Source: a virus
Taxonomy: Duplodnaviria > Heunggongvirae > Uroviricota > Caudoviricetes
Virus record (IMG/VR): IMGVR_UViG_2579778956_000001
Coordinates: 1 to 24,208 of that record
Length of the DNA: 24,208 nucleotides
Reading direction: 5' to 3' (one strand)
Position numbers and translations under genes: made by a program. The notes beneath the pieces are model-generated. The model saw nothing but the letters and a program-made list of their open reading frames with translations, did not search any database and was not told the origin of the DNA. Every line of letters begins with the position of its first letter. Within the stretch, counting starts at the first letter, position 1. This document shows, in pieces, positions 2,834-15,904 of this stretch.

Positions 2834-3430
2834 TCAATTTGAAACTATTGTACTTCTTATACAAGCAACCACTTCAATATCAGAAAATGCACATTCAAAG
2901 CTATTCTCTGTAGTTGTAATTTTAATCATACCTTTTGGAAGCTTTGTGATTTTTCGAATGGAATAGGTTCCGTCGATGTTGATTAACCAGTGTCCATCAA
3001 GTACTTCAGAAAATTTTTGATCACAAATGTATGTGACAAGCCCATCCTGAATAACAATTGGTGATGAAAGATTTGCAGGAAGAAATGATGAATCGAATAC
3101 ATATGAACCATCTTCAATCATTTTGCCTGCGGTAAGGCGAAACTTGGGAAGCTCTTCTGTGGCTACTGTCAGCGAGCTTTGCTTAAGTCCTTGCCCGGTG
3201 GTTAACCATTTCAGTGAGGTTCCTGTTTCAAGAGCACATTGGATTATCCAGTCTGCAGGAAACGTATCCCGCAAATACCTGTTCGCCAGAGTGCTTTTTG
3301 ATACTTCCAAGTGATCAGCTAAAGCCTGTCGTGTCGTAAAGCCATAAGCTTCGACTAATCGCTCAATCGCAGCCTTACCACCTTTATTGGGATTTATTTT
3401 GATCTCACTTGGGTACTTTGATGTTGACAT
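2834..3430 (-). CDS. cI: 186-type CI immunity repressor (N-terminal HTH, C-terminal oligomerisation domain)
   Basis: 198-aa ORF. N-terminal LVEAYGFTTRQALADHLEVSKSTLANRYLRD...ALETGTSLKWLTTGQG resembles the phage-186 CI HTH domain. Divergent from the apl/cII genes and adjacent to int. No LexA/S24-type Ala-Gly cleavage site or G-D-S-M motif seen. Confidence 0.75.
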   Translation of the reverse strand: MSTSKYPSEIKINPNKGGKAAIERLVEAYGFTTRQALADHLEVSKSTLANRYLRDTFPADWIIQCALETGTSLKWLTTGQGLKQSSLTVATEELPKFRLTAGKMIEDGSYVFDSSFLPANLSSPIVIQDGLVTYICDQKFSEVLDGHWLINIDGTYSIRKITKLPKGMIKITTTENSFECAFSDIEVVACIRSTIVSN

Positions 3431-3525: not shown

Positions 3526-3747
3526 ATGACCCCTAACATTTCAATAACTCTGAATACGCCACATGTCACAATTGAGCGTTATAGCGAACTTACTGGTCTT
3601 TCAATCGACACAATTAACGATATGCTGGCTGACGGTCGCATCCCTCGGCATCGCCTTCGGAAAGACAAGAAAAGAGAAAAGGTGATGATCAACCTTGCTG
3701 CTCTTACCGTTGATGCACTTACTGATTGCAATGTTGTATTCAACTAG
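3526..3747 (+). CDS. Apl/Cox-like small HTH DNA-binding protein (excisionase / lytic-switch regulator)
   Basis: 73-aa ORF starting at ATG 3526 behind SD AGGAG; the ORF-track upstream extension from 3409 overlaps cI and is unlikely. HTH-like [24 protein letters not shown]. First gene of the rightward early operon, in the Apl/Cox position. Confidence 0.6.
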
Positions 3748-3779
3748 TTCCATTTTGGGATACATCAGGGGTGTCGACC

Positions 3780-4289
3780 ATGTTTGATTACCAAGTTTCC
3801 AAACATCCACATTTTGATGAAGCCTGTCGTGCATTCGCATTGCGCCACAACCTGGTGCAACTGGCAGAACGTGCTGGCATGAATGTGCAGATTCTGCGGA
3901 ACAAGCTGAACCCATCTCAACCTCATTTATTAACCGCACCAGAAATCTGGCTGCTTACCGATCTGACTGAAGATTCAACGCTGGTAGATGGTTTTCTGGC
4001 ACAGATTCACTGCCTGCCATGTGTACCGATTAATGAGGTTGCAAAAGAGAAACTGCCGCATTACGTCATGAGCGCAACTGCAGAGATCGGACGTGTTGCA
4101 GCAGGTGCGGTATCTGGTGATGTAAAAACTAGTGCCGGTCGTCGTGATGCTATCAGCAGCATTAACTCTGTAACACGACTGATGGCGCTGGCTGCTGTTT
4201 CATTGCAGGCCCGTTTACAGGCTAATCCTGCGATGGCGAGTGCAGTTGATACCGTGACTGGCCTCGGTGCTTCATTCGGTTTGCTGTGA
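3780..4289 (+). CDS. cII: Phage regulatory protein CII (186/P2-family)
   Basis: Start chosen at ATG 3780 ([45 protein letters not shown]...) after the apl stop, with a GGGG SD upstream. Sequence recalled as 186 CII-like; position after apl. Confidence 0.7.
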
Positions 4290-5103: not shown

Positions 5104-5330
5104 TGGCTGATGCAATGGATCTCGTACAGCAGCGCGTTGAAGAAGAACGCCAACGCCATATCCGTGCTGCCCGTGCCAAAACGCCGGGCGTGTCCCGCGT
5201 GCTTTGCATTGAGTGTGAAGCGCCAATTCCGCCAGCACGCCGCCGTGCCATTCCGGGTGTGCAGCTTTGCATTACCTGTCAGGAAATCGCAGAGCTGAAA
5301 GGCAAACATTACAACGGAGGTGCTGTATGA
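5103..5330 (+). CDS. TraR/DksA-family C4 zinc-finger protein
   Basis: 75-aa ORF with CxxC...17 residues...CxxC (CIECEAPIPPARRRAIPGVQLCITCQ). Start overlaps the upstream stop (TAATG). This family commonly sits upstream of replication genes in P2-like phages. Confidence 0.7.
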   Translation: MADAMDLVQQRVEEERQRHIRAARAKTPGVSRVLCIECEAPIPPARRRAIPGVQLCITCQEIAELKGKHYNGGAV

Positions 5331-6184
5331 GCACCATCCTGAAATGGGCGGGAAATAAAACTGCCATAATGTCCGAACTGAAAAAACATCTTCCTGCTGG
5401 CCCGCGACTGGTTGAACCTTTCGCGGGTTCCTGTGCTGTGATGATGGAGACGGATTATCCCAGCTATCTGGTTGCGGATATTAATCCTGATTTAATCAAC
5501 CTCTATAAAAAGGTTGCCGCTGATTGTGAATCGTTTATATCTCGCGCCAGAGTTTTATTTGAGATCGCAAACAGGGAGGTGGCTTATTACAACATAAGGC
5601 AGGAGTTTAATTACTCAACTGAAATTACTGATTTCATGAAAGCGGTATATTTCCTGTATCTCAATCGTCACGGTTACCGTGGTTTATGTCGCTATAACAA
5701 GAGCGGGCATTTCAACATTCCCTACGGTAATTATAAAAATCCGTATTTTCCTGAAAAAGAAATTCGTGCATTTGCAGTAAAAGCCCAGCGGGCAACGTTT
5801 ATCTGCGCCAGCTTTGATGAAACGCTGGCGATGTTGAAGGCGGGGGATGTGGTGTATTGCGATCCGCCGTATGACGGTACGTTTTCCGGCTATCACACTG
5901 ACGGCTTCACTGAAGATGACCAGTATCACCTGGCATGTGTTCTTGAACATCGGTCATCAGAAGGACATCCGGTCATTGTTTCTAACAGTGACACATCCCT
6001 GATCCGTTCGCTGTATCGCAATTTTACTCACCACTACATCAAGGCAAAACGCAGCATCGGTGTGGCAGCTGGCGAGGGTAAATCAGCAACAGAAATCATT
6101 GCTGTTTCCGGGCCGCGCTGCTGGGTGGGATTTGATTATTCGCGTGGCGTGGATAGTTCTGCCGTGTACGGAGTACGTGCATGA
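5327..6184 (+). CDS. dam: Dam-family N6-adenine DNA methyltransferase (orphan, phage-encoded)
   Basis: Start at ATG 5327 (SD GGAGG 5315-5319; ATGA overlap with the TraR stop). ILKWAGNK near the N-terminus, [23 protein letters not shown] and the catalytic DPPY motif closely parallel E. coli Dam. No restriction gene adjacent. Confidence 0.9.
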
Positions 6185-8595
6185 GTCATGCCGATATGAA
6201 CAACTGCTGCGGCTTTAACGAAGCTGCCGCATCGTTCTCATGGAACAGCCCGAAAAAGGCCATTAACCCTTATCTGGACCCGGCGGAAGTTGCGCCGGTT
6301 TCTACGCTTTCAAACCTGATCACTCTGTACGCTGCCGATAACGAGCAGGAACAGCTGCGCCGCGAGGCACTGAGTGATCAGGTCTGGGAGCGTTATTTCT
6401 TTAATGAATCCCGTGATCCTGTCCAGCGCGAAATGGAGCAGGATAAGCTCATTAGCCGGGCAAAGCTGGCGCATGAGCAGCAGCGTTTTAATCCAGACAT
6501 GGTCATTCTGGCTGACGTCAACGCCCAGCCTTCCCATATCAGCAAGCCGCTGATGCAACGTATTGAATATTTCAGCAGCCTGGGCAGGCCAAAGGCTTAT
6601 TCCCGCTATTTGCGTGAGACGATTAAGCCATGTCTGGAACGACTGGAGCATGTCCGCGACTGTCAGCTATCCACTTCTTTTCGCTTTATGGCAAGCCATG
6701 AAGGGCTGGATGGCCTGCTTATCCTGCCTGAAATGAGTCAGGATCAGGTGAAGCGCCTGTCTACCCTTGTCGCTGCGCATATGAGCATGTGCCTTGATGC
6801 AGCTTGTGGCGATTTGTATGCCACCGATGATGTTAAGCCAGAAGAAATCCGCAAGACATGGGAAAAGGTGGCAGCAGAAACCCTGCGTCTGGATGTCATC
6901 CCGCCTGCGTTTGAGCAACTCCGTAGGAAAAGAAACCGCCGTAAACCAGTGCCCTATGAACTCATTCCGGGTTCGCTGGCGCGTATGCTGTGCGCCGACT
7001 GGTGGTATCGGAAATTGTGGAAGATGCGTTGCGAATGGCGGGAAGAGCAGTTGCGTGCTGTCTGCCTGGTCAGCAAAAAAGCATCTCCCTATGTCAGCTA
7101 TGAAGCCGTGATGCATAAACGTGAGCAGCGCCGTAAGTCGCTGGAGTTTTTCCGTTCTCATGAACTGGTGAACGAAGACGGCGACACGCTGGATATGGAA
7201 GATGTGGTAAACGCCAGTAGTAGCAACCCGGCGCATCGCCGCAATGAGATGATGGCATGTGTTAAAGGTCTGGAGCTTATCGCGGAAATGCGCGGTGACT
7301 GCGCCGTTTTCTACACCATCACCTGTCCGTCACGTTTCCATTCCACGCTAAATAACGGCAGGCCCAACCCGACCTGGACAAATGCGACGGTAAGACAAAG
7401 CAGTGATTATCTGGTCGGCATGTTTGCTGCATTTCGTAAGGCGATGCACAAAGCCGGATTGCGCTGGTATGGCGTGCGGGTGGCTGAGCCGCATCATGAC
7501 GGTACAGTTCACTGGCACCTGTTGTGTTTTATGCGCAAAAAAGATCGCCGCGCCATTACTGCTTTGTTGCGTAAGTTTGCCATTCGTGAAGACCGCGAGG
7601 AACTGGGTAATAACACAGGACCACGCTTTAAGTCTGAGTTGATTAACCCGCGCAAAGGTACGCCAACAAGCTACATCGCGAAATACATCAGTAAGAACAT
7701 TGACGGGTGTGGTCTGGCTGGCGAGATCAGCAAGGAAACGGGTAAATCCCTGCGTGATAACGCTGAATACGTTAATGCCTGGGCGTCTCTGCATCGTGTT
7801 CAGCAATTCCGCTTCTTTGGCATTCCGGGGCGTCAGGCTTACCGTGAACTGCGATTGCTGGCTGGTCAGGCGGCAAGGCAACAGGGGGACAAAAAAGCAG
7901 GTGCGCCGGTACTGGATAACCCGCGCCTTGATGCCATTCTGGCTGCTGCTGATGCTGGTTGTTTTGCCACCTACATCATGAAGCAGGGTGGCGTACTGGT
8001 TCCCCGCAAATATCACCTCATCAGAACTGCTTATGAAATCAACGAAGAGCCGACCGCCTATGGCGATCACGGCATTCGTATTTATGGCATCTGGTCACCT
8101 ATTGCAGAGGGCAAGATCTGCACTCATGCCGTGAAGTGGAAAATGGTTCGTAAGGCCGTTGACGTTCAGGAGGCGGCAGCCGACCAGGGCGCTTGCGCCC
8201 CTTGGACTCGTGGCAATAACTGTCCCCTTGCTGAAAATTTGTACCAACAAGGGAAAGACAAATCAGCTGATGGAGATACCAGAACGGATATCACCCGCAT
8301 GGATGACAAGGAGTTGCACGATTACCTGCACAGTATGAGCAAAAAAGAGCGCCGGGAACTGGCAGCAAGGTTACGCCTGGTGAAACCGAAACGGCGTAAA
8401 GACTACAAACAACGAATTACAGACCATCAGCGACTGCAGCTCGTGTATGAACTGAAGTCCAGGGGATTTGATGGCAGCGAGAAAGAGGTCGATTTACTGC
8501 TTCGCGGCGGCAGTATTCCGTCAGGAGCAGGCCTGCGTATCTTCTATCGGAACCAGCGTTTGCAGGAAGATGATAAGTGGCGAAACCTGTATTAA
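6181..8595 (+). CDS. A: Replication initiation protein gpA (rolling-circle replication endonuclease, HUH family)
   Basis: 804-aa ORF. HUH-like VHWHLLCF and twin-tyrosine SYIAKYISK motifs. ATGA overlap with the dam stop. Size and position match P2 gene A. Confidence 0.9.
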
Positions 8596-8980: not shown

Positions 8981-9106
8981 AAGGTCAACTAAGGATTGAA
9001 ACAGAAAGCCCTTGAAAACAGTAGCAAGTTGCCTATTATCTACGCTGTATTTAATCGATGTCATTGGCTGTAATACCTTAAGTGATATTGAAAGGCGGTG
9101 TGGGGA

Positions 9107-10267
9107 ATGGATCTGGCTAAAGTTGAAGAACGCGTCCGAAGAGTCATAGGGACAATGGAGTCTGCCGAGCTTGATGAATATTTTTGGGGTAAGCGCTCGG
9201 GTTTGGGAGACTCATTACCTCCGTATTATCTCGTTTATTTTCTTTTGGTAGATTTACTGAAATTTAAAAATCGTGGGGTTGATGAGAAGATTTCTTTTTC
9301 TATCCCAGTCCGGATTGATGGGACTGTCGTAATTATAGAACATCGTAAACTTGGTTTAGATATATTTATCAAGAGTGATGATGATATAGAGCAAGCTAAA
9401 ACTGTTTTGAGACATATTTGCGCAGGGGTTAAAGCTGCTACGAAATTTTTTGACTCGCTTGCAGACAATGCAGCAAAGACTTCAAATCTAAATGTTAATA
9501 ACAATGCTAATTCTCTTTATGATAGGTTTTGCTATTTTTTAGAGCTATATAAACAGAAGCTTGATGAAGTTGCTGCTGGCCAAGAGTCTAAACTGGAAGT
9601 TGATAGTGAGTTTAAGTCTGATAATTTTTTCAGCCTGTTACAATCCACTTTTGAACAATCAAATAAGATAATTGAACTCCGAAGAGAGGCTATGTGGTTA
9701 GCAACGTCTGCAATTGAGTCATTTTTCAATTGGACCGAGCATGTTTTCATTCTTATTGCAATCTTGAAGGGTGAGATAAAAAATGGGAATGATGTGGCTG
9801 ATAAAGTTGGGAAAGAATGGGGGGAGAAATTCAAATTAGCCATTGATATTAACTCTTCCAGTCTAAAATCATTCTATGATCGTTTACTTATACTCAGAAA
9901 ACAGGTGCGTAATTTTGTAGCCCATGGCGCCTTCGGTAAGGATGGGCAAGCATTGGAATTTCACTCAAGTGTAGGGGCTGTGCCACTATTGCTGCCTCAT
10001 CGAGAAAATAAAGAACGTTTCAAGTTTGGAAATGGTGTGCATTTTTTGGCACCTGAAGCAATGCAATTAATTAACGATTTTCTTGAAAATTTGTGGCAGG
10101 GAGAACTGTCCCCAGCAAAAATTTATATTGAATCTGGATGTCCTTTAATACTATCTTACGTAACTAATGGAACCTATGCGGAGGCGATGAAATCAGAAAG
10201 GAATATGGACTTATTGGTTAATTACTTAACTCGTGAGATGGATAATGCCGCAAACATGGATTGGTAA
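9107..10267 (+). CDS. Hypothetical protein with HEPN-like R-N-x3-H motif (candidate RNase-type defence/abortive-infection effector)
   Basis: ORF with ATG at 9107 (alternative GTG at 9098; SD-like AAGG at 9092-9095, about 11 nt upstream). AT-rich codon usage. Contains LRKQVRNFVAHG, which fits the HEPN consensus R-[NSH]-x3-H. No other domain recognised. Lies in the gpA-Q hotspot. Confidence 0.65.
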   Translation: MDLAKVEERVRRVIGTMESAELDEYFWGKRSGLGDSLPPYYLVYFLLVDLLKFKNRGVDEKISFSIPVRIDGTVVIIEHRKLGLDIFIKSDDDIEQAKTVLRHICAGVKAATKFFDSLADNAAKTSNLNVNNNANSLYDRFCYFLELYKQKLDEVAAGQESKLEVDSEFKSDNFFSLLQSTFEQSNKIIELRREAMWLATSAIESFFNWTEHVFILIAILKGEIKNGNDVADKVGKEWGEKFKLAIDINSSSLKSFYDRLLILRKQVRNFVAHGAFGKDGQALEFHSSVGAVPLLLPHRENKERFKFGNGVHFLAPEAMQLINDFLENLWQGELSPAKIYIESGCPLILSYVTNGTYAEAMKSERNMDLLVNYLTREMDNAANMDW

Positions 10268-10594
10268 ACTCTAGGTGCGGGTTACAAACACACAAAAAAT
10301 CTTCCTGAGTTAGGTGTTATCCCAACCCAAGGCTGTGTCAGGAAAACTTCATATGGCGCATGAGATCGCATGATAGTATGACGATCGTTTTCGCTGATGC
10401 CAGCCTGAGCTGGCGGGCTGTTGCATATGTCATGCAGGCGCATGAAAACCACTGCATAAAGCGGGTAGGCGTGGCGGGGATACGAGCGCGCGCTTGTGGC
10501 TTTGAATACTCAAATCATGTAATGTTAATTGTCCAAGCTCAGATGTTATTTTAGAATCGTAGTTCACTAGAACTGTGTTAATTGGGAAGTATTC

Positions 10595-11845
10595 ATGGAT
10601 AAACAACGTGCTTCACAAGTTTTTGTGCCTGGCGGTATGCCGAAATTGACTTATGTTGAGCGCTCTGAAGGAGAGGTTCATGGAAAACTGGAGAGTGCTA
10701 AAGATAATTTATGTAAGTTAGTGACTTTAACTGGGCAAACAAAGTCTGGTAAGACTGTAATTACAAGAATGGTATTCCCAGTCATGGACGATGATGTTGT
10801 ATGGATTGACGGTGGGAGTATTACAACTGAAGATGATATTTGGGAGCAGGTATTAGAAAAACTAAATGGCTACCATAGTATTGAAGTTAATTCTGGAGAA
10901 AATAGTGCTATTGCAGTTAGTGGTAAGGTATCGGGGACCGCAAGTGCATTCGTTGTTAAAGGTACAGGTGAGGCTGGTTTAGTTCAGACGGATGGAAAGT
11001 CAAATGGTAATAAAAAATCGCGAACGATATCCGCAAAAAGTTCTGCACTAAAAGTTCTCTCTCAAACCAAGTCTAGTCTTATAATTGATGACTTTCATTA
11101 CCTTGATCGTGACCTACAAGGTAACTTTATTAGAGCGATAAAACCATTAGTTTTTGATGGAGTACCAGTTGTACTGATAGCCATTCCACATCGAAGATAT
11201 GATGCTGTAAAAGTTGAAAAAGAAATTACCGGACGGCTAGAAAATATTTCCATGCCTTCGTGGGAAATGGATGAACTAAAACAAATAGCAAAAGTGGGAT
11301 TTCCTCTGTTAAACATGGAAGTTAGTGATTCAGTAATTGATAAAATTGCCAATGAATCATTGGGAAGCCCTCATTTAATGCAAGAGTTTTGCAAGGCTAT
11401 ATGCTTAGCAAATAATGTTAAAGAAACTTTGCCGAGTAAGTTAGTTATTAATTCTTTAGATGATGATATTTTTAGAAAGGTTGCAGAATCCACTGGGAAA
11501 ATAGTATTTGATAAGTTAGCTAGTGGCCCTAATCAGCGAACTGACAGAATTCCTAGAAAACTGAAAAGTGGTGAGGAAGTAGATATATATAAAGTTGTAT
11601 TATATGCATTGTCACATATGAAACCAGGAATGCAAAGTATTCAGTATGAGGAGTTAAGATCAGCCATACGCGAACTGGTGCAAGATGCTCCTCCACAAGC
11701 TCATGAGGTTACTCGTGTTATAGAAAAAATGGCTAAAATAGCTGCTACGGAAGAAGCTTCAACTCCTGTAATAGATTGGGATAAGGAGGACCGAAAGTTG
11801 CATATTACTGATCCATTTTTTGCTTTTTATCTAAAATGGCGATAA
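10595..11845 (+). CDS. P-loop NTPase (Walker A/B ATPase), candidate defence-system ATPase
   Basis: 416-aa ORF with SD GGGAAG upstream. Walker A LTGQTKSGKT (about residue 45) and Walker B-like hhhhDD (SLIIDDFHYLD). AT-rich. No nuclease (Toprim/HNH) motif recognised, so not an obvious Old/Gabija-type protein. Confidence 0.8.
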   Translation: MDKQRASQVFVPGGMPKLTYVERSEGEVHGKLESAKDNLCKLVTLTGQTKSGKTVITRMVFPVMDDDVVWIDGGSITTEDDIWEQVLEKLNGYHSIEVNSGENSAIAVSGKVSGTASAFVVKGTGEAGLVQTDGKSNGNKKSRTISAKSSALKVLSQTKSSLIIDDFHYLDRDLQGNFIRAIKPLVFDGVPVVLIAIPHRRYDAVKVEKEITGRLENISMPSWEMDELKQIAKVGFPLLNMEVSDSVIDKIANESLGSPHLMQEFCKAICLANNVKETLPSKLVINSLDDDIFRKVAESTGKIVFDKLASGPNQRTDRIPRKLKSGEEVDIYKVVLYALSHMKPGMQSIQYEELRSAIRELVQDAPPQAHEVTRVIEKMAKIAATEEASTPVIDWDKEDRKLHITDPFFAFYLKWR

Positions 11846-11852
11846 AGGTTCT

Positions 11853-11871
11853 GGCTGCCAAACTGGCAGCC
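11853..11871. terminator. GC-rich hairpin between the convergent ATPase gene (+) and portal gene (-); putative bidirectional terminator
   Basis: GGCTGCC (11853-11859), loop AAACT, GGCAGCC (11865-11871). Located in the 32-bp gap between two convergent stop codons. Flanking T/A runs are weak. Confidence 0.45.
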
Positions 11872-11877
11872 TTAAAG

Positions 11878-12915
11878 CTAATTTGAATGAAGTTTATATT
11901 CTTCGAACTGTATCACTTTTTCTTTTAACCAAACATTTAACTCTTCAAATCTTTTTTGCAATGGTATTAGTTCATTGCGTACAAATACATTACTTGCCTT
12001 CTCCACATCCCCAAACCCCCCAACATTATTTGGCATTATCCCCATCATCTGTGGCGGCACGCGGTGTGCCGCCATCATGTCATCGCGACTAACATTTTTG
12101 ATATTCAGAAATTCATCCTTCGCTGCGACTTCTGACAACGGGATAATCTGAAGTCCGTCTTTTTTACCATTAGGCGAGTACATAAACAGATTGCGGAAGT
12201 TACCCGGACCTTTGGCGCTTTTCATTGCGTTGCGGAGGTTGTTCACATCCTCCTGGTTCTGCGCGGCATCGGTCATGTACATGATGAAGCCGGCATGACT
12301 GCCGTTAATGTAATACTTGCGGCGGAACAGCGTGGCGGACTCGTTGAGCAAAGCGGATGGGATGGCAGAAAGATAGCCGGGCAGGCCGTAGATCTCCTGG
12401 TTGATGTCCGGTTCCATCAGATGAAAAATGCTGCCTTTCGTGAACTGATACGGCTGGGTTGTCATACCGTATTGCACAAACCAGTAGGTATCCAGGTCTA
12501 ACCCGCGTCGGGTGTATTTTGCCAGCGCAGGCTCAAGGGCGATAACTTCACCGAATCGGTTCGTGCGTTTCTCCAGGTAGGCGTTACCAAATACCAGATA
12601 GTCCTGTACAAAACGCGAAAAAGCCTGTTGGCTGAGCAGCGGATGAGGGATATAGGTACTGGTCAGAATGTTGCACTTTACTGCAATCGGGGAACTGTGA
12701 TGCACGGCAGCCCGGAAGGTGCGCGCCAGTCCGTCAAAACTTACGGGTGGCTCGTACCAACACTCCATCTGTACGCATTCCACATAGTCCAGCAGTTCGC
12801 GGCGGTCCAGAACAGGAACGGGATCACCGAAGCTGAATGCTTCGGCTGAAGTCTGGCTTTTATGCTGGATCTGTTTCGTCGACGCAGCGCGGTTCTTCTT
12901 ACTCTTTCCCATCAA
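11878..12915 (-). CDS. Q: Portal vertex protein gpQ
   Basis: 345-aa ORF; size and position (upstream of and translationally coupled to the terminase gene) match P2 gene Q. Start overlaps the terminase stop. Confidence 0.85.
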   Translation of the reverse strand: MMGKSKKNRAASTKQIQHKSQTSAEAFSFGDPVPVLDRRELLDYVECVQMECWYEPPVSFDGLARTFRAAVHHSSPIAVKCNILTSTYIPHPLLSQQAFSRFVQDYLVFGNAYLEKRTNRFGEVIALEPALAKYTRRGLDLDTYWFVQYGMTTQPYQFTKGSIFHLMEPDINQEIYGLPGYLSAIPSALLNESATLFRRKYYINGSHAGFIMYMTDAAQNQEDVNNLRNAMKSAKGPGNFRNLFMYSPNGKKDGLQIIPLSEVAAKDEFLNIKNVSRDDMMAAHRVPPQMMGIMPNNVGGFGDVEKASNVFVRNELIPLQKRFEELNVWLKEKVIQFEEYKLHSN

Positions 12916-14678
12916 AAAATCTCCACAATATTGCTGGTATTGGCGGACTCGCCCTGCAGCGGTTCGTTAAACAGTGCGTGCATTGTTGCCCAGGCCAGAT
13001 CGGCATGGCTGGCTTCTTCGCTGCGGCTGGCTTCATAGGTCGGGCGGTTGCCACTGGCAGTGGTAGCGCGACGGATTGCCATAAATGACTGCGCAATGTC
13101 GGTGTGCCCGGCGTCAAACTCCAGACGGCGGTGGCTGATAATGTCGTAGGCCTTGAGTACCAGGGCGTTTTTAACATTGGGGTTGTAGACAAACTCCCGG
13201 ACGGCAGGAAAGAACGCTTTCACGTTCTCATAAACCCCGTGACCAACGCCGGTTGAGTCGATACCGATATAGGTCACGTTGTACTGTTCGGTCAGTTTTT
13301 TGATGGCGTCAGCCTGGGCGCGGAAGTCCATCCCGCGCCACTGGTGACGCTCAAGAATGCGGAACTTACCACCAGGCACGGCTGGCGGTGCCACCACCAC
13401 GCATCCGGCGCTGTCGCCGTTTTGCGTACCTTTTGCCGGGTCATAACCGATCCACACTTCGCGCCAGCCAAACGGGCGCAGAGCCAGTGCATGAAAGTCG
13501 GTCCAGACTTCCCAGCTGTCCACCATGCACGCCTGCAGCTCGCTGAGCGGAAATACGGACGCGAGATCGTCCACAAACTCGCACATCAGCAGGTTCTGGT
13601 ATTCGTCCGGGCTGTACTCCATGCGCAACTGGTCAAGGTCGAACAGGTTACAGCCGCCGCGCACCGCATCTTCCACGGTGACTATCTGGCGGTATTGCCC
13701 GTCTGCGCACAGCAGGCCGGGGGCCAGATTGCTGTGGGACAGGTCGATGTCCACCTTGTCGGCCTTGTTGCGCCCACGGTTGAACAGCGCACCGGACCAG
13801 AACGGATAAGCACTGTGTGTCAGGCTGGATGGCGTGGAAAAATAGGTTTGTCGCCATTTTTTGTGAATAGCCATACCGGAAGCCACTTTGCGCAGCTCCT
13901 GGAATTTCGGTATCCAGAAATATTCATCCAGATACAGGTTGCCGTGATAACTCTGGGCCGTGCGGGCATTGGTGCCGAGGAAGTAAAGCGTGGCCCCGTT
14001 AGGAAGCACCATCGGATCGCCTTTCAACTCCACCCCCACTTCTTTGGCGAAGTCGATGATGTACTGCTTAAAGACGTGGGCCTGTGCCTTGCTGGCGGAA
14101 AGGAAAATCTGGTTACGTCCGGTAAGCAGGGCGTCAATCAGGGCTTCACGGGCAAAGTAAAAGGTCGCGCCGATCTGGCGTGACTTCAGCAGGTTGCGGA
14201 TGCGGTTGGTTTTTCCGGCTTCCCACCAGTGGCGCTGGTAGTTGAACATGGAGGAATGGAAGATTTCTTCCAGCTTCTCAATCTGCTCATCGGTGAAAAC
14301 ATTCTTTTCCGGCTGACGGCGTGGGCCTTTATTGCGGTTGGCGACGTTAGGGTTTAAGTCGGCTTCGTTGCCGCCATTGTTAAACTTGCCGATCCGCGCG
14401 TGGCGCTCCGACTGGCGCGCCAGCAGGTCAATCTCTTTGAAATCTTTCCCTTCTTTGTGCTCCTTCATGATGAGCTGGCAGTAGCGTGCGGCGGTGGTGA
14501 GCTGCATCTGATCCAGCGGCCCATAGTCACCCCACTTGTCGCGTTTTTTCCAGCTGTGAACGGTTGCAACTTTCTCGCCCAGCATTTCAGCAATGCGGGC
14601 TACGCGGTATCCCTGAAAGTACAGCAGCATGGCCTGCCGACGGGGATCGAGATCTGCGGGTGTCAGTGTGGTGTTCAT
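12912..14678 (-). CDS. P: Terminase large (ATPase) subunit gpP
   Basis: 588-aa ORF (P2 gpP is about 590 aa), divergent from the scaffold gene O, with the Q gene immediately downstream in the same orientation. Confidence 0.9.
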   Translation of the reverse strand: MNTTLTPADLDPRRQAMLLYFQGYRVARIAEMLGEKVATVHSWKKRDKWGDYGPLDQMQLTTAARYCQLIMKEHKEGKDFKEIDLLARQSERHARIGKFNNGGNEADLNPNVANRNKGPRRQPEKNVFTDEQIEKLEEIFHSSMFNYQRHWWEAGKTNRIRNLLKSRQIGATFYFAREALIDALLTGRNQIFLSASKAQAHVFKQYIIDFAKEVGVELKGDPMVLPNGATLYFLGTNARTAQSYHGNLYLDEYFWIPKFQELRKVASGMAIHKKWRQTYFSTPSSLTHSAYPFWSGALFNRGRNKADKVDIDLSHSNLAPGLLCADGQYRQIVTVEDAVRGGCNLFDLDQLRMEYSPDEYQNLLMCEFVDDLASVFPLSELQACMVDSWEVWTDFHALALRPFGWREVWIGYDPAKGTQNGDSAGCVVVAPPAVPGGKFRILERHQWRGMDFRAQADAIKKLTEQYNVTYIGIDSTGVGHGVYENVKAFFPAVREFVYNPNVKNALVLKAYDIISHRRLEFDAGHTDIAQSFMAIRRATTASGNRPTYEASRSEEASHADLAWATMHALFNEPLQGESANTSNIVEIF

Positions 14679-14820: not shown

Positions 14821-15459
14821 ATGACAGTGAAAGCAAAGCGTTTTCGCATCGGGGTGGAAGGTGCCACCACCGACGGACGCGAAATCCAGCGTGAATGGCT
14901 GGAACAGATGGCAGCCAGCTACAACCCGGCGGTGTATACCGCGCTGATTAACCTTGAGCACATCAAGTCTTATCTGCCGGACAGCACCTTTAACCGCTAC
15001 GGCAAGGTGACGGCGCTGTTTGCTGAAGAAATCAAGGAAGGTCCGCTGGCAGGCAAGATGGCGCTGTATGCCGACGTTGAGCCAACGGAGTCCCTGGTGG
15101 AACTGGTGAAAAAAGGCCAGAAATTATTCACATCTATGGAAGTTAGCCCGAAGTTCGCTGATACGGGCAAAGCCTACCTGGTCGGCCTGGCTGCCACTGA
15201 TGACCCTGCCAGTCTGGGCACTGAAATGCTGACATTCAGCGCCAGTGCAGCCCATAACCCGCTGGCAAACCGCAAGCAGAATCCCGCCAATCTTTTTACC
15301 GCTGCAGAGGAAACGGTGATCGAACTGGAAGAAATCCAGGATGACAAACCGTCCCTGTTTGCCCGTGTCACGGCGCTGTTCACCAAAAAAGAGCAGTCCG
15401 ATGACGCCCGGTTCTCTGATGTGCATAAGGCCGTGGAACAACTGGCAGGGGATCGTTGA
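14821..15459 (+). CDS. O: Capsid scaffolding protein gpO, C-terminally truncated at a deletion junction (likely nonfunctional)
   Basis: 212-aa ORF with an N-terminus of gpO type (FRIGVEGATTDGREI...YLVGLAATDDPASLGTE). P2 gpO is about 284 aa as I recall. The ORF ends in a short non-homologous tail (QLAGDR*) exactly where tail-tube homology begins in another frame. Confidence 0.75.
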   Translation: MTVKAKRFRIGVEGATTDGREIQREWLEQMAASYNPAVYTALINLEHIKSYLPDSTFNRYGKVTALFAEEIKEGPLAGKMALYADVEPTESLVELVKKGQKLFTSMEVSPKFADTGKAYLVGLAATDDPASLGTEMLTFSASAAHNPLANRKQNPANLFTAAEETVIELEEIQDDKPSLFARVTALFTKKEQSDDARFSDVHKAVEQLAGDR

Positions 15460-15904
15460 GTCGCTGACGCTGCCGAAATTTACCCGCAAATATGAGAAGT
15501 ATCGCGGCGGCGGAATGCCGGGTGCGGTGGATGTGGATCTGGGGCTTGATGACAGTGCGCTGGACACAGAATTTTCCATTGGTGGTACTGAATTGCTGCT
15601 GTTTAAACAGATGGGTAAAGCCACGGTGGATGGCATCCAGCTGCGCTTTACCGGCTCTATTCAGCGTGACGATACCGGGGAAGTGCAGGCCGTGGAGCTT
15701 GTCGTGCGTGGACGTCACAAAGAAGTGGATTCCGGCGAGTGGAAGACGGGCGAAAGCAACACCACCAAAGTGACCAGTACCAACAGCTACGCGAAGCTGA
15801 CCATCAATGGTGAGGTGCTCTATGAAGTGGACCTTATCAACATGGTGGAAATTGTGGACGGTGTGGACCTGATGGAAGCGCACCGCAACGCCCTCGGCCT
15901 CTGA
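15446..15904 (+). pseudogene. FII: Tail tube protein FII, 5'-truncated fragment fused downstream of gpO
   Basis: Frame of ORF 15341..15904. Homology to the P2 major tail tube protein begins about at QGIVESLTLPKFTRKYEKYRGGGMPGAVDVDLGLDD and runs to the C-terminus (...EAHRNALGL). About 25 N-terminal residues and any start codon/SD are missing; the upstream part of the ORF overlaps gpO out of frame. Confidence 0.7.

Follow-up and report, generated by a model that had tools for sequence, protein, structure and literature searches.

P-loop ATPases are known cargo of the hotspots of P2 and P4 phages, among them Old of P2, GajA, and AriA (PMC9122126), all of which are ABC-type ATPases coupled to Toprim. 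The DNA analyzed here, a stretch of 24,208 nucleotides from IMG/VR virus record IMGVR_UViG_2579778956_000001 (positions 1 to 24,208; hereafter the window), is a defective 186/P2-like prophage in which the interval between gpA and the portal gene, the P2 defense hotspot of Rousset et al. (PMC9122126), likewise encodes a P-loop ATPase, a protein of 416 amino acids (aa). This ATPase is an AAA+ protein, in contrast to Old, GajA, and AriA, and matches none of these three, nor AAA_15 or AAA_21, in Pfam or PADLOC; it has neither a Toprim domain nor a Toprim partner. It is very probably a self-contained AAA+ protein of the ORC/Cdc6-like kind, made up of a core, a helical lid, and a winged helix, and its profile match makes it a member of PDC-S59, a single-gene "phage defense candidate" (PDC) family that is already catalogued. 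We incline to the overall reading that the gene is autonomous single-gene accessory cargo of temperate phages that serves the lysogen, with exclusion or defense by assembly. The features of the gene are as follows.

10595..11845, + strand: coding sequence of the 416-aa ATPase (open reading frame [ORF] call; PDC-S59 profile match over residues 7-415)
10622..10663, + strand: conserved N-terminal motif FVPGGMPxLTYVxR, residues 10-23, ahead of the helix leading to the P-loop strand
10733..10756, + strand: Walker A motif (P-loop) GQTKSGKT, residues 47-54 (translation and 35-sequence alignment)
10862..11032, + strand: insert rich in G, S, T, and K (residues 90-146), placed between helix alpha2 and the strand bearing Walker B
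11078..11104, + strand: Walker B motif IIDDFHYLD, residues 162-170, beginning 115 residues after Walker A (translation and alignment)
11177..11197, + strand: unvarying IAIPHRR, residues 195-201, at the end of strand beta4 (alignment and modeled secondary structure)
11255..11422, + strand: AAA+ helical lid, residues 221-276, with unvarying SPHLMQxFC (alignment; RuvB-lid match)
11471..11842, + strand: winged-helix domain at the C terminus (residues about 293-416), containing the basic stretch GPxQRxDRxxRxLK and the unvarying tail TDPFFAFxLxW (fold search)

As in a preliminary description of this DNA, the ORF listing of the window gives a single 416-aa ORF, which begins with ATG and ends in a stop codon at 11843-11845. 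The start codon is supported because the N terminus matches the starts of 34 homologues residue by residue (MxxxRxSxVFVPGGMP) and because GGGAAG lies 8 nucleotides (nt) 5' of the ATG. The exact protein occurs on 385 E. coli contigs and is named "hypothetical" every time. GQTKSGKT and LIIDD fit the Walker A and Walker B patterns, GxxxxGK[ST] and hhhhD[DE], respectively; the preliminary description had put Walker A at about residues 45-53, within two residues of its place here, and Walker B about 110 residues later. In an alignment of 35 family sequences from several phyla, with a mean column identity of 63%, G47, T49, K50, G52, K53, and T54 of Walker A and I164, D165, D166, F167, H168, and Y169 of Walker B are unvarying, an invariance of both motifs across phyla that is far above chance level. 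Equally unvarying in this alignment are F10, P12, G13, G14, P16, T19, and R23 of the N-terminal motif.

An AlphaFold2 model built from the 35 sequences (predicted local distance difference test [pLDDT] score of 75.7) divides the protein into an alpha-beta-alpha core, a lid of helices, and an alpha/beta domain at the C terminus. The closest folds returned by a fold search are Orc1/Cdc6, clamp loaders, DnaA, MuB, and TnsC, with Cdc6 and the archaeal protein PAB2304 matching best; Foldseek against the BFVD viral structures gave generic clamp-loader/AAA+ matches only (template modeling score, ≤0.45). When searched against the sequences of solved structures, the family profile aligned at residues 220-279 to the lid of RuvB. 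These RuvB-lid matches are marginal, both with the single protein and with the profile, and their sole use was to locate the sensor-2 position; the sensor-2 arginine is not present, and an unvarying His260 (GSPH) stands at the arginine of RuvB GTPR. The IAIPHRR motif lies where sensor 1 and the arginine finger would be expected. From the fold search, the RuvB-lid alignment, and the model, the C-terminal region of about 200 residues, once described as unassigned, can be assigned as AAA+ lid plus winged helix, and the whole 416 aa is covered by core, lid, and winged helix.

Neither a nuclease nor any other effector domain was found with Pfam, PADLOC, NCBIfam, PHROGs, or the fold search, in agreement with the stand-alone NTPase proposed in the preliminary description, and the protein carries no nuclease, TIR, protease, or transmembrane module. 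In Pfam, the window ATPase matches AAA_22, AAA_16, and TniB below threshold (TniB with 18.2 bits, under the threshold of 22.4); AAA_22 and AAA_16 are matched by 33 of the 35 family members and NB-ARC, weakly, by 3, and NACHT and nSTAND were not matched. NCBIfam (June 2026) has no model for the ATPase and gave no meaningful match, and the sole match in PHROGs is phrog_6841, a function-unknown family. Profile and structure searches, to which the choice among AAA+, ABC, KAP, and STAND had initially been left, thus classify the protein as AAA+ of the ORC/Cdc6/STAND-like kind and not as ABC or KAP.

The same architecture of core, lid, and winged helix is found in the archaeal Walker-type ATPases PAB2304 (2qen) and SSO1545 (2fna), which are themselves listed just as "Walker-type ATPase" and "conserved hypothetical protein." Their identity to the ATPase is 12 to 16%, the ATPase family has no match to Pfam ATPase_2, and a 57-aa insert and the FVPGGMP motif set the family apart from both. 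With Orc1/Cdc6, the three-part architecture is shared at the fold level (9 to 17% identity), and searches of Pfam, NCBIfam, and PDB sequences gave no Cdc6/ORC match; the ATPase further differs in its histidine at sensor 2, its accessory and mobile distribution, and the lack of linkage to an origin or replication genes. Clear homology to a housekeeping or morphogenesis ATPase, which would have counted against the preliminary description, was not found beyond this fold-level similarity. Relative to STAND/NLR-like proteins (Avs, bNACHT) and BrxC of BREX, the protein is compatible with the NOD core in its architecture and in its GSPH motif (compare GxP) but lacks both the N-terminal effector and the C-terminal repeat sensor, such that its 416 aa would amount to a bare NOD.

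Two further regions of the protein stand out. In the winged-helix domain, the conserved basic stretch occupies residues 311-323. The insert has a constant length of 57 to 58 aa and a consensus identity of 0.42, versus 0.70 to 0.79 in the flanking segments; its predicted structure comprises a hairpin, a loop of low confidence, and a helix, and residues 97-142 have pLDDT values below 50. Initiator-clade AAA+ proteins (ORC, DnaA, and TnsC) have a DNA-contacting initiator-specific motif (ISM) between alpha2 and the Walker B strand. The insert of the ATPase, modeled mostly at low confidence, occupies this ISM position between alpha2 and beta3.

The match to the PADLOC profile of PDC-S59 (E = 1.2e-31, 108 bits) aligns residues 7-415 with profile positions 6-402 of 428. 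PDC families comprise genes nominated because they are embedded in BREX, DISARM, or type I restriction-modification (RM) systems (Payne et al., bioRxiv 10.1101/2024.01.29.577857). Literature text searches for PDC-S59 and for WP_000360886 found no paper that names either, and no phenotype, fold, or mechanism; a search on AAA_22 single-gene anti-phage proteins returned nothing on the window ATPase. The family is large: a word-indexed search found 1,673 clusters, all of about 416 to 430 aa, with members about 55% identical in Pseudomonas, Nostoc, Vibrio, and others. Searched exhaustively by profile, 1.84 billion representatives contained 617 proteins with E ≤ 1e-30; relaxing the cutoff to E ≤ 1e-10 gave 1,522, and to E ≤ 1e-3, 2,295. 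Among the best 150 of these 2,295 representatives, 148 are unfused (about 405 to 465 aa if apparently full length, with fragments shorter). The 90%-identity protein cluster of the ATPase also contains several 50-aa "ribosomal protein L33" entries, which look like a collection artifact.

The only longer proteins among these 150 are P0137 (902 aa) and P0140 (917 aa), in which the PDC-S59 module continues into a second P-loop NTPase, about 480 aa long, with the motif GRRGxGKT. This second NTPase has weak similarity to ORC-CDC6-like proteins, AAA_16, nSTAND, and PDC-M28C, and the C-terminal halves of the two fusions share 32% identity.

Scanning a single genome from each species yielded 118 relatives, most of them 45 to 55% identical to the window ATPase, and 80 loci were retained. 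Their hosts are Proteobacteria, Bacteroidota, Cyanobacteria, Acidobacteriota, Planctomycetota, Chloroflexota, Firmicutes, and Patescibacteria, the last including a closed Saccharibacteria chromosome; one further member is in a metagenome-assembled genome (MAG) labeled Aenigmatarchaeota. Distant homologues (22 to 35% identity) lie on plasmids of Firmicutes and Actinobacteria, and full-length members are present on 17 IMG/VR viral contigs. The carriers include at least two unrelated temperate-phage types, chromosomal islands, and plasmids.

To compare neighborhoods, ORFs were called in 78 loci from different species, and up to four neighbors per side were clustered by blastp. The largest cross-locus cluster of neighbors spans 3 loci, and no Pfam or PADLOC family occurs in more than 3 of the 113 immediate flanking proteins. 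Matches among the neighbors are scattered (RM methylases, a BsuBI/PstI endonuclease, NERD, an AbiEii-like ATPase, integrases, and many housekeeping genes), and no Toprim neighbor was found among the Pfam and PADLOC families listed for the 113 flanking proteins. Unrelated chromosomal genes surround the solitary gene in Pseudomonas oryziphila and Vibrio cholerae, and a lambdoid prophage of Serratia carries it as a single gene on the opposite strand, far from any packaging genes. The same P2-type hotspot in Salmonella enterica holds a 69%-identical homologue, for which the index of the collection lists 2,787 blocks; two of the four P2-like arrangements displayed for Salmonella have it as their sole cargo besides the widespread orf62 and DinI. 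None of about 100 fetched loci has the second-NTPase module of P0137 and P0140 next to the ATPase gene. Because there is no recurrent neighbor, because the gene occurs alone, and because the fused module is never nearby, the cassette is autonomous at the genomic level; the single-gene organization expected of PDC-S59 is borne out by this neighborhood analysis.

The window places the gene among the following prophage features.

1-1053, - strand: integrase (domain scan)
1137-2813, - strand: 558-aa protein with DUF4041 and T5orf172/MUG113 (GIY-YIG-like), further cargo between integrase and CI repressor
2834-3430, - strand: CI repressor (domain scan)
3726-4289: CII-like regulator (domain scan)
5267-6184: Dam methylase (domain scan)
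6181-8595: gpA (Phage_GPA; Pfam)
9098-10267, + strand: 389-aa HEPN-like gene (cargo)
11878-12915, - strand: portal gene (Phage_portal; Pfam)
12912-14678, - strand: terminase gene (domain scan)

Phage_GPA and Phage_portal flank the cargo, as expected from the P2-hotspot location given in the preliminary description. The terminase gene is followed by tail genes, gpD, ogr, and then the host gene ybjL. Because the scaffold gene gpO is truncated directly into the tail-tube gene FII (it ends at profile position 207 of 268, running into and overlapping the start of FII, at 14821-15904 of the window), the capsid, small-terminase, lysis, baseplate, and fiber genes are deleted. A differently deleted prophage, L099, has kept the ATPase and lost portal and terminase; the gene is therefore retained in two prophages with different deletions. 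The GC content of the cargo is 34 to 41%, versus 52 to 58% for the backbone, and fewer than 1% of the E. coli genomes that match this hotspot carry the ATPase (about 99% are without it). The 3' end of the portal gene (11878-12200) is AT rich (about 40% GC) and diverges among P2-like loci along with the neighboring cargo, and cassette exchange may therefore reach into the portal C terminus. The 558-aa cargo gene at 1137-2813 falls in a minor hotspot of P2-like prophages, between integrase and primase (PMC13586616).

Within the gpA-portal interval, four noncoding features delimit or accompany the ATPase cassette.

10352..10494, no strand assigned: conserved cos-region element of 143 bp, present in about 630 E. 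coli genomes, mostly unannotated
10468..10486, + strand: GGCGTGGCGGGGATACGAG, homologous to the cohesive end (cos) of P2; it bounds the ATPase cassette on the left and separates the cassette from the 389-aa gene
10529..10557, + strand: sigma-70-like promoter candidate TTGTCC-17-TAGAAT, 38 nt before the ATG and within the cassette (pattern match only)
11853..11871, no strand assigned: hairpin GGCTGCCA-AAC-TGGCAGCC, between the convergent stop codons of the ATPase and portal genes

The exact P2 cohesive end was not found in the window with up to 3 mismatches allowed; a diverged version was then located at 10468-10486, and the P2 cos junction (cosR/cosL, annotated in NC_001895) aligns to 10436-10494 at 44 of 59 positions. 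The GGCGTGGCGGGGATACGAG motif occurs exactly once in every fetched P2-like locus (E. coli, Salmonella, and Dryocola), and in those carrying the ATPase it lies about 110 to 140 bp before the start codon. Six ATPase-carrying loci are identical up to 10493 and divergent straight after, giving the cos-portal slot a sharp left junction 7 nt past the cohesive-end homologue. The gpA-portal hotspot, treated in the literature consulted as a single one "near cos," appears to be two slots, gpA-cos and cos-portal, split by cos. The gpA-cos slot holds the 389-aa gene in the window and tin/old in P2; the cos-portal slot holds the ATPase in the window and no annotated coding sequence in P2, where none lies between cosL and gene Q (NC_001895). 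The 389-aa HEPN-like gene is therefore a separate cargo module in the gpA-cos slot, and in packaged linear DNA it would lie at the opposite end from the ATPase. Of the other two features, the promoter candidate is kept together with the ATPase gene in UMNF18, and promoter-pattern sites in the region are not more numerous than in shuffled sequence. The hairpin occupies the place of the annotated tQ terminator of P2 and has positional counterparts in all aligned loci, including P2; its position and sequence suggest a terminator.

What lies upstream of the ATPase varies: DinI and a 203-aa protein, a 141-aa minus-strand ORF, DUF8087, IS1 with DUF6236, or nothing. The 203-aa protein is 99% identical in E. 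coli and Salmonella loci whose ATPases are only 69% identical; cargo upstream and downstream therefore assorts independently. For the same reason, and because it is often absent, we rejected the 203-aa ORF as a partner of the ATPase. Its RefSeq name, "valyl-tRNA synthetase," is almost certainly a misannotation: the protein (L001, 3965-4576; L094, 5090-5701) has a subthreshold match to the C-terminal coiled-coil arm of Val-tRNA synthetase (E = 0.009), and its hydrophobic N-terminal stretch may be a membrane anchor. A second candidate partner, a 64-aa ORF at 10360-10554 (+ strand), was rejected as well, as it spans cos and takes its first 45 codons from the conserved cos element. This ORF is WP_071533703 in RefSeq and matches phrog_28685 over residues 1-46, has an internal stop in strain 64EVA, and is unannotated in most of the approximately 630 genomes with the cos element; it is probably a spurious gene call.

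Taken together, the location in a defense hotspot, low GC content, rarity, retention in decaying prophages, and PDC nomination count for an accessory or defense role, and we consider defense or phage exclusion somewhat probable. In the scheme we propose, the ATPase cassette fills the short cos-portal interval of a defective 186/P2-like prophage and encodes a protein that has all its nucleotide-binding and hydrolysis residues intact and no enzymatic effector, and that would benefit the lysogen as a phage-exclusion or defense protein. An action of the assembly type is proposed because the ATPase is without any catalytic effector: the ATP-driven switch would assemble on the nucleic acid of an invading phage, or on a replication or packaging protein, and the assembled ATPase would block this target stoichiometrically, with no cutting. 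ORC, MuB, and TnsC assemble on DNA in a nucleotide-dependent manner, and P2 Tin, which poisons a phage replication protein, is a precedent for stoichiometric blocking by P2 cargo. We put this specific assembly-and-block mechanism forward as tentative. More speculative again is the idea that the bare ORC/Cdc6-STAND-like core might by itself be a complete nonenzymatic anti-phage protein, in which the hypervariable, fixed-length insert would recognize the invader and the 45 to 60% identity across phyla, the candidate phyla radiation (CPR) included, would reflect a universal target.

Several observations weigh against a defensive role or its proposed mechanism. With a histidine in place of the sensor-2 arginine, the protein may cycle through ATP binding and hydrolysis in an atypical way, and because the winged-helix region is not basic overall (it is slightly acidic, with a mean net charge of -2.5), DNA binding is not obvious. 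The cross-phylum identity of 45 to 60% is unusually high for immune proteins and could signal another conserved cellular role. Association with defense outside prophages is weak, a handful of the 113 flanking proteins being RM, NERD, or AbiEii-like among the families listed, and no close homologue was found in any deposited phage isolate. Rousset et al. list the protein only as "hypothetical" in their hotspot-content Table S5A (PMC9122126), and PDC-S59 is one of 145 candidates that its authors declared untested (bioRxiv 10.1101/2024.01.29.577857).

Two other readings give the ATPase a partner. The preliminary description had offered a choice between two independent single-gene systems and a split sensor/effector pair, in which the ATPase would sense infection and activate the upstream 389-aa HEPN-like RNase, or the reverse. 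The two genes are indeed adjacent in the window, on the same strand and 327 bp apart, and the separate 389-aa ORF exists as described; its HEPN assignment is faint, resting on a weak Pfam match to Csx1_HEPN (E = 0.04). The protein is RefSeq WP_032248694, annotated there as 386 aa, and its gene appears in the DefensePredictor tables, with log-odds of about 10.6, as a putative novel defense gene remotely similar to Csm6/Csx1. Against a pair, the expected co-occurrence is missing: of 5,426 complete E. coli genomes, 10 carry the 389-aa gene, 7 carry the ATPase, 3 more have a version of the ATPase gene with about 70% nucleotide identity, and none has both genes. The 389-aa gene is also in none of the best 10 loci carrying an identical ATPase. 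Either gene occurs alone or with other partners; in L725, the one complete E. coli genome with the 389-aa gene that was inspected, this gene is followed by the cos motif and then by cargo encoding 355-aa HATPase_c-like, STAS-like, and 162-aa proteins. No HEPN-like neighbor recurs in the 78 distant loci. With cos between the two genes and their slots assorting independently, a split pair is very improbable and the alternative of independent single-gene systems is favored; the ATPase is, with high probability, independent of the 389-aa gene. A defense sensor or switch that needs an unlinked partner, such as a host nuclease, a replisome component, or a second NTPase acting in trans, would leave the cassette alone incomplete. 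The absence of an effector domain fits such a dependence, the P0137 and P0140 fusions to a second ORC/STAND-like NTPase hint at a partner family, and the extreme conservation suits contact with a universal host component. We nevertheless regard it as quite unlikely, since the fused module is absent beside the ATPase in the fetched loci and the gene moves and persists alone across very distant phyla, although a universal partner (DNA or the replisome) would still be compatible with this.

The remaining readings dispense with defense altogether. A role as replication initiator or loader, as cos or packaging accessory, or as transcription regulator would agree with the closest folds (Orc1/Cdc6, clamp loaders, DnaA, MuB, and TnsC), with the constant position of the gene beside cos and the portal/terminase operon in P2-like prophages, and with a conservation unusually high for a defense gene; the P2 hotspot, moreover, also carries nondefense cargo (PMC9122126). 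Yet P2 and about 99% of the hotspot-matching E. coli genomes do without the gene, so the phage life cycle does not require it. As cargo it is low in GC; it also lies remote from any packaging genes in Serratia, is found outside any recognizable prophage in Pseudomonas, Vibrio, and many MAG copies, and has no sequence-level match to replication or packaging families. Such a function is accordingly unlikely in our estimate, if somewhat less so than dependence on an unlinked partner. Finally, the subthreshold TniB match and the fold similarity to MuB and TnsC raise the question of an orphan transposition ATPase of the TniB/TnsC/MuB type, left behind by a mobile element. Those proteins are encoded beside a transposase, whereas the ATPase has no recurrent transposase neighbor and no member was seen in Tn7- or Tn5053-like operons; the C-terminal winged helix is as in the best-matching Cdc6 and PAB2304, and uniform full-length conservation speaks against remnants. 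This origin is the least probable of all those considered.

Nothing in the locus is categorically new; the cos-portal placement and the domain assignment of a PDC-S59 member come from this analysis. The two-slot arrangement means that adjacency across cos is no evidence of partnership, which refines the grouping of hotspot genes into "systems." If the ATPase protects alone, it would be among the smallest effector-less NTPase immune proteins known. An exclusion or defense function of autonomous single-gene cargo would, if true, mean that an ORC/Cdc6-STAND core gives immunity without a nuclease, TIR, or protease module and would provide a first function for the large and strongly conserved PDC-S59 family.

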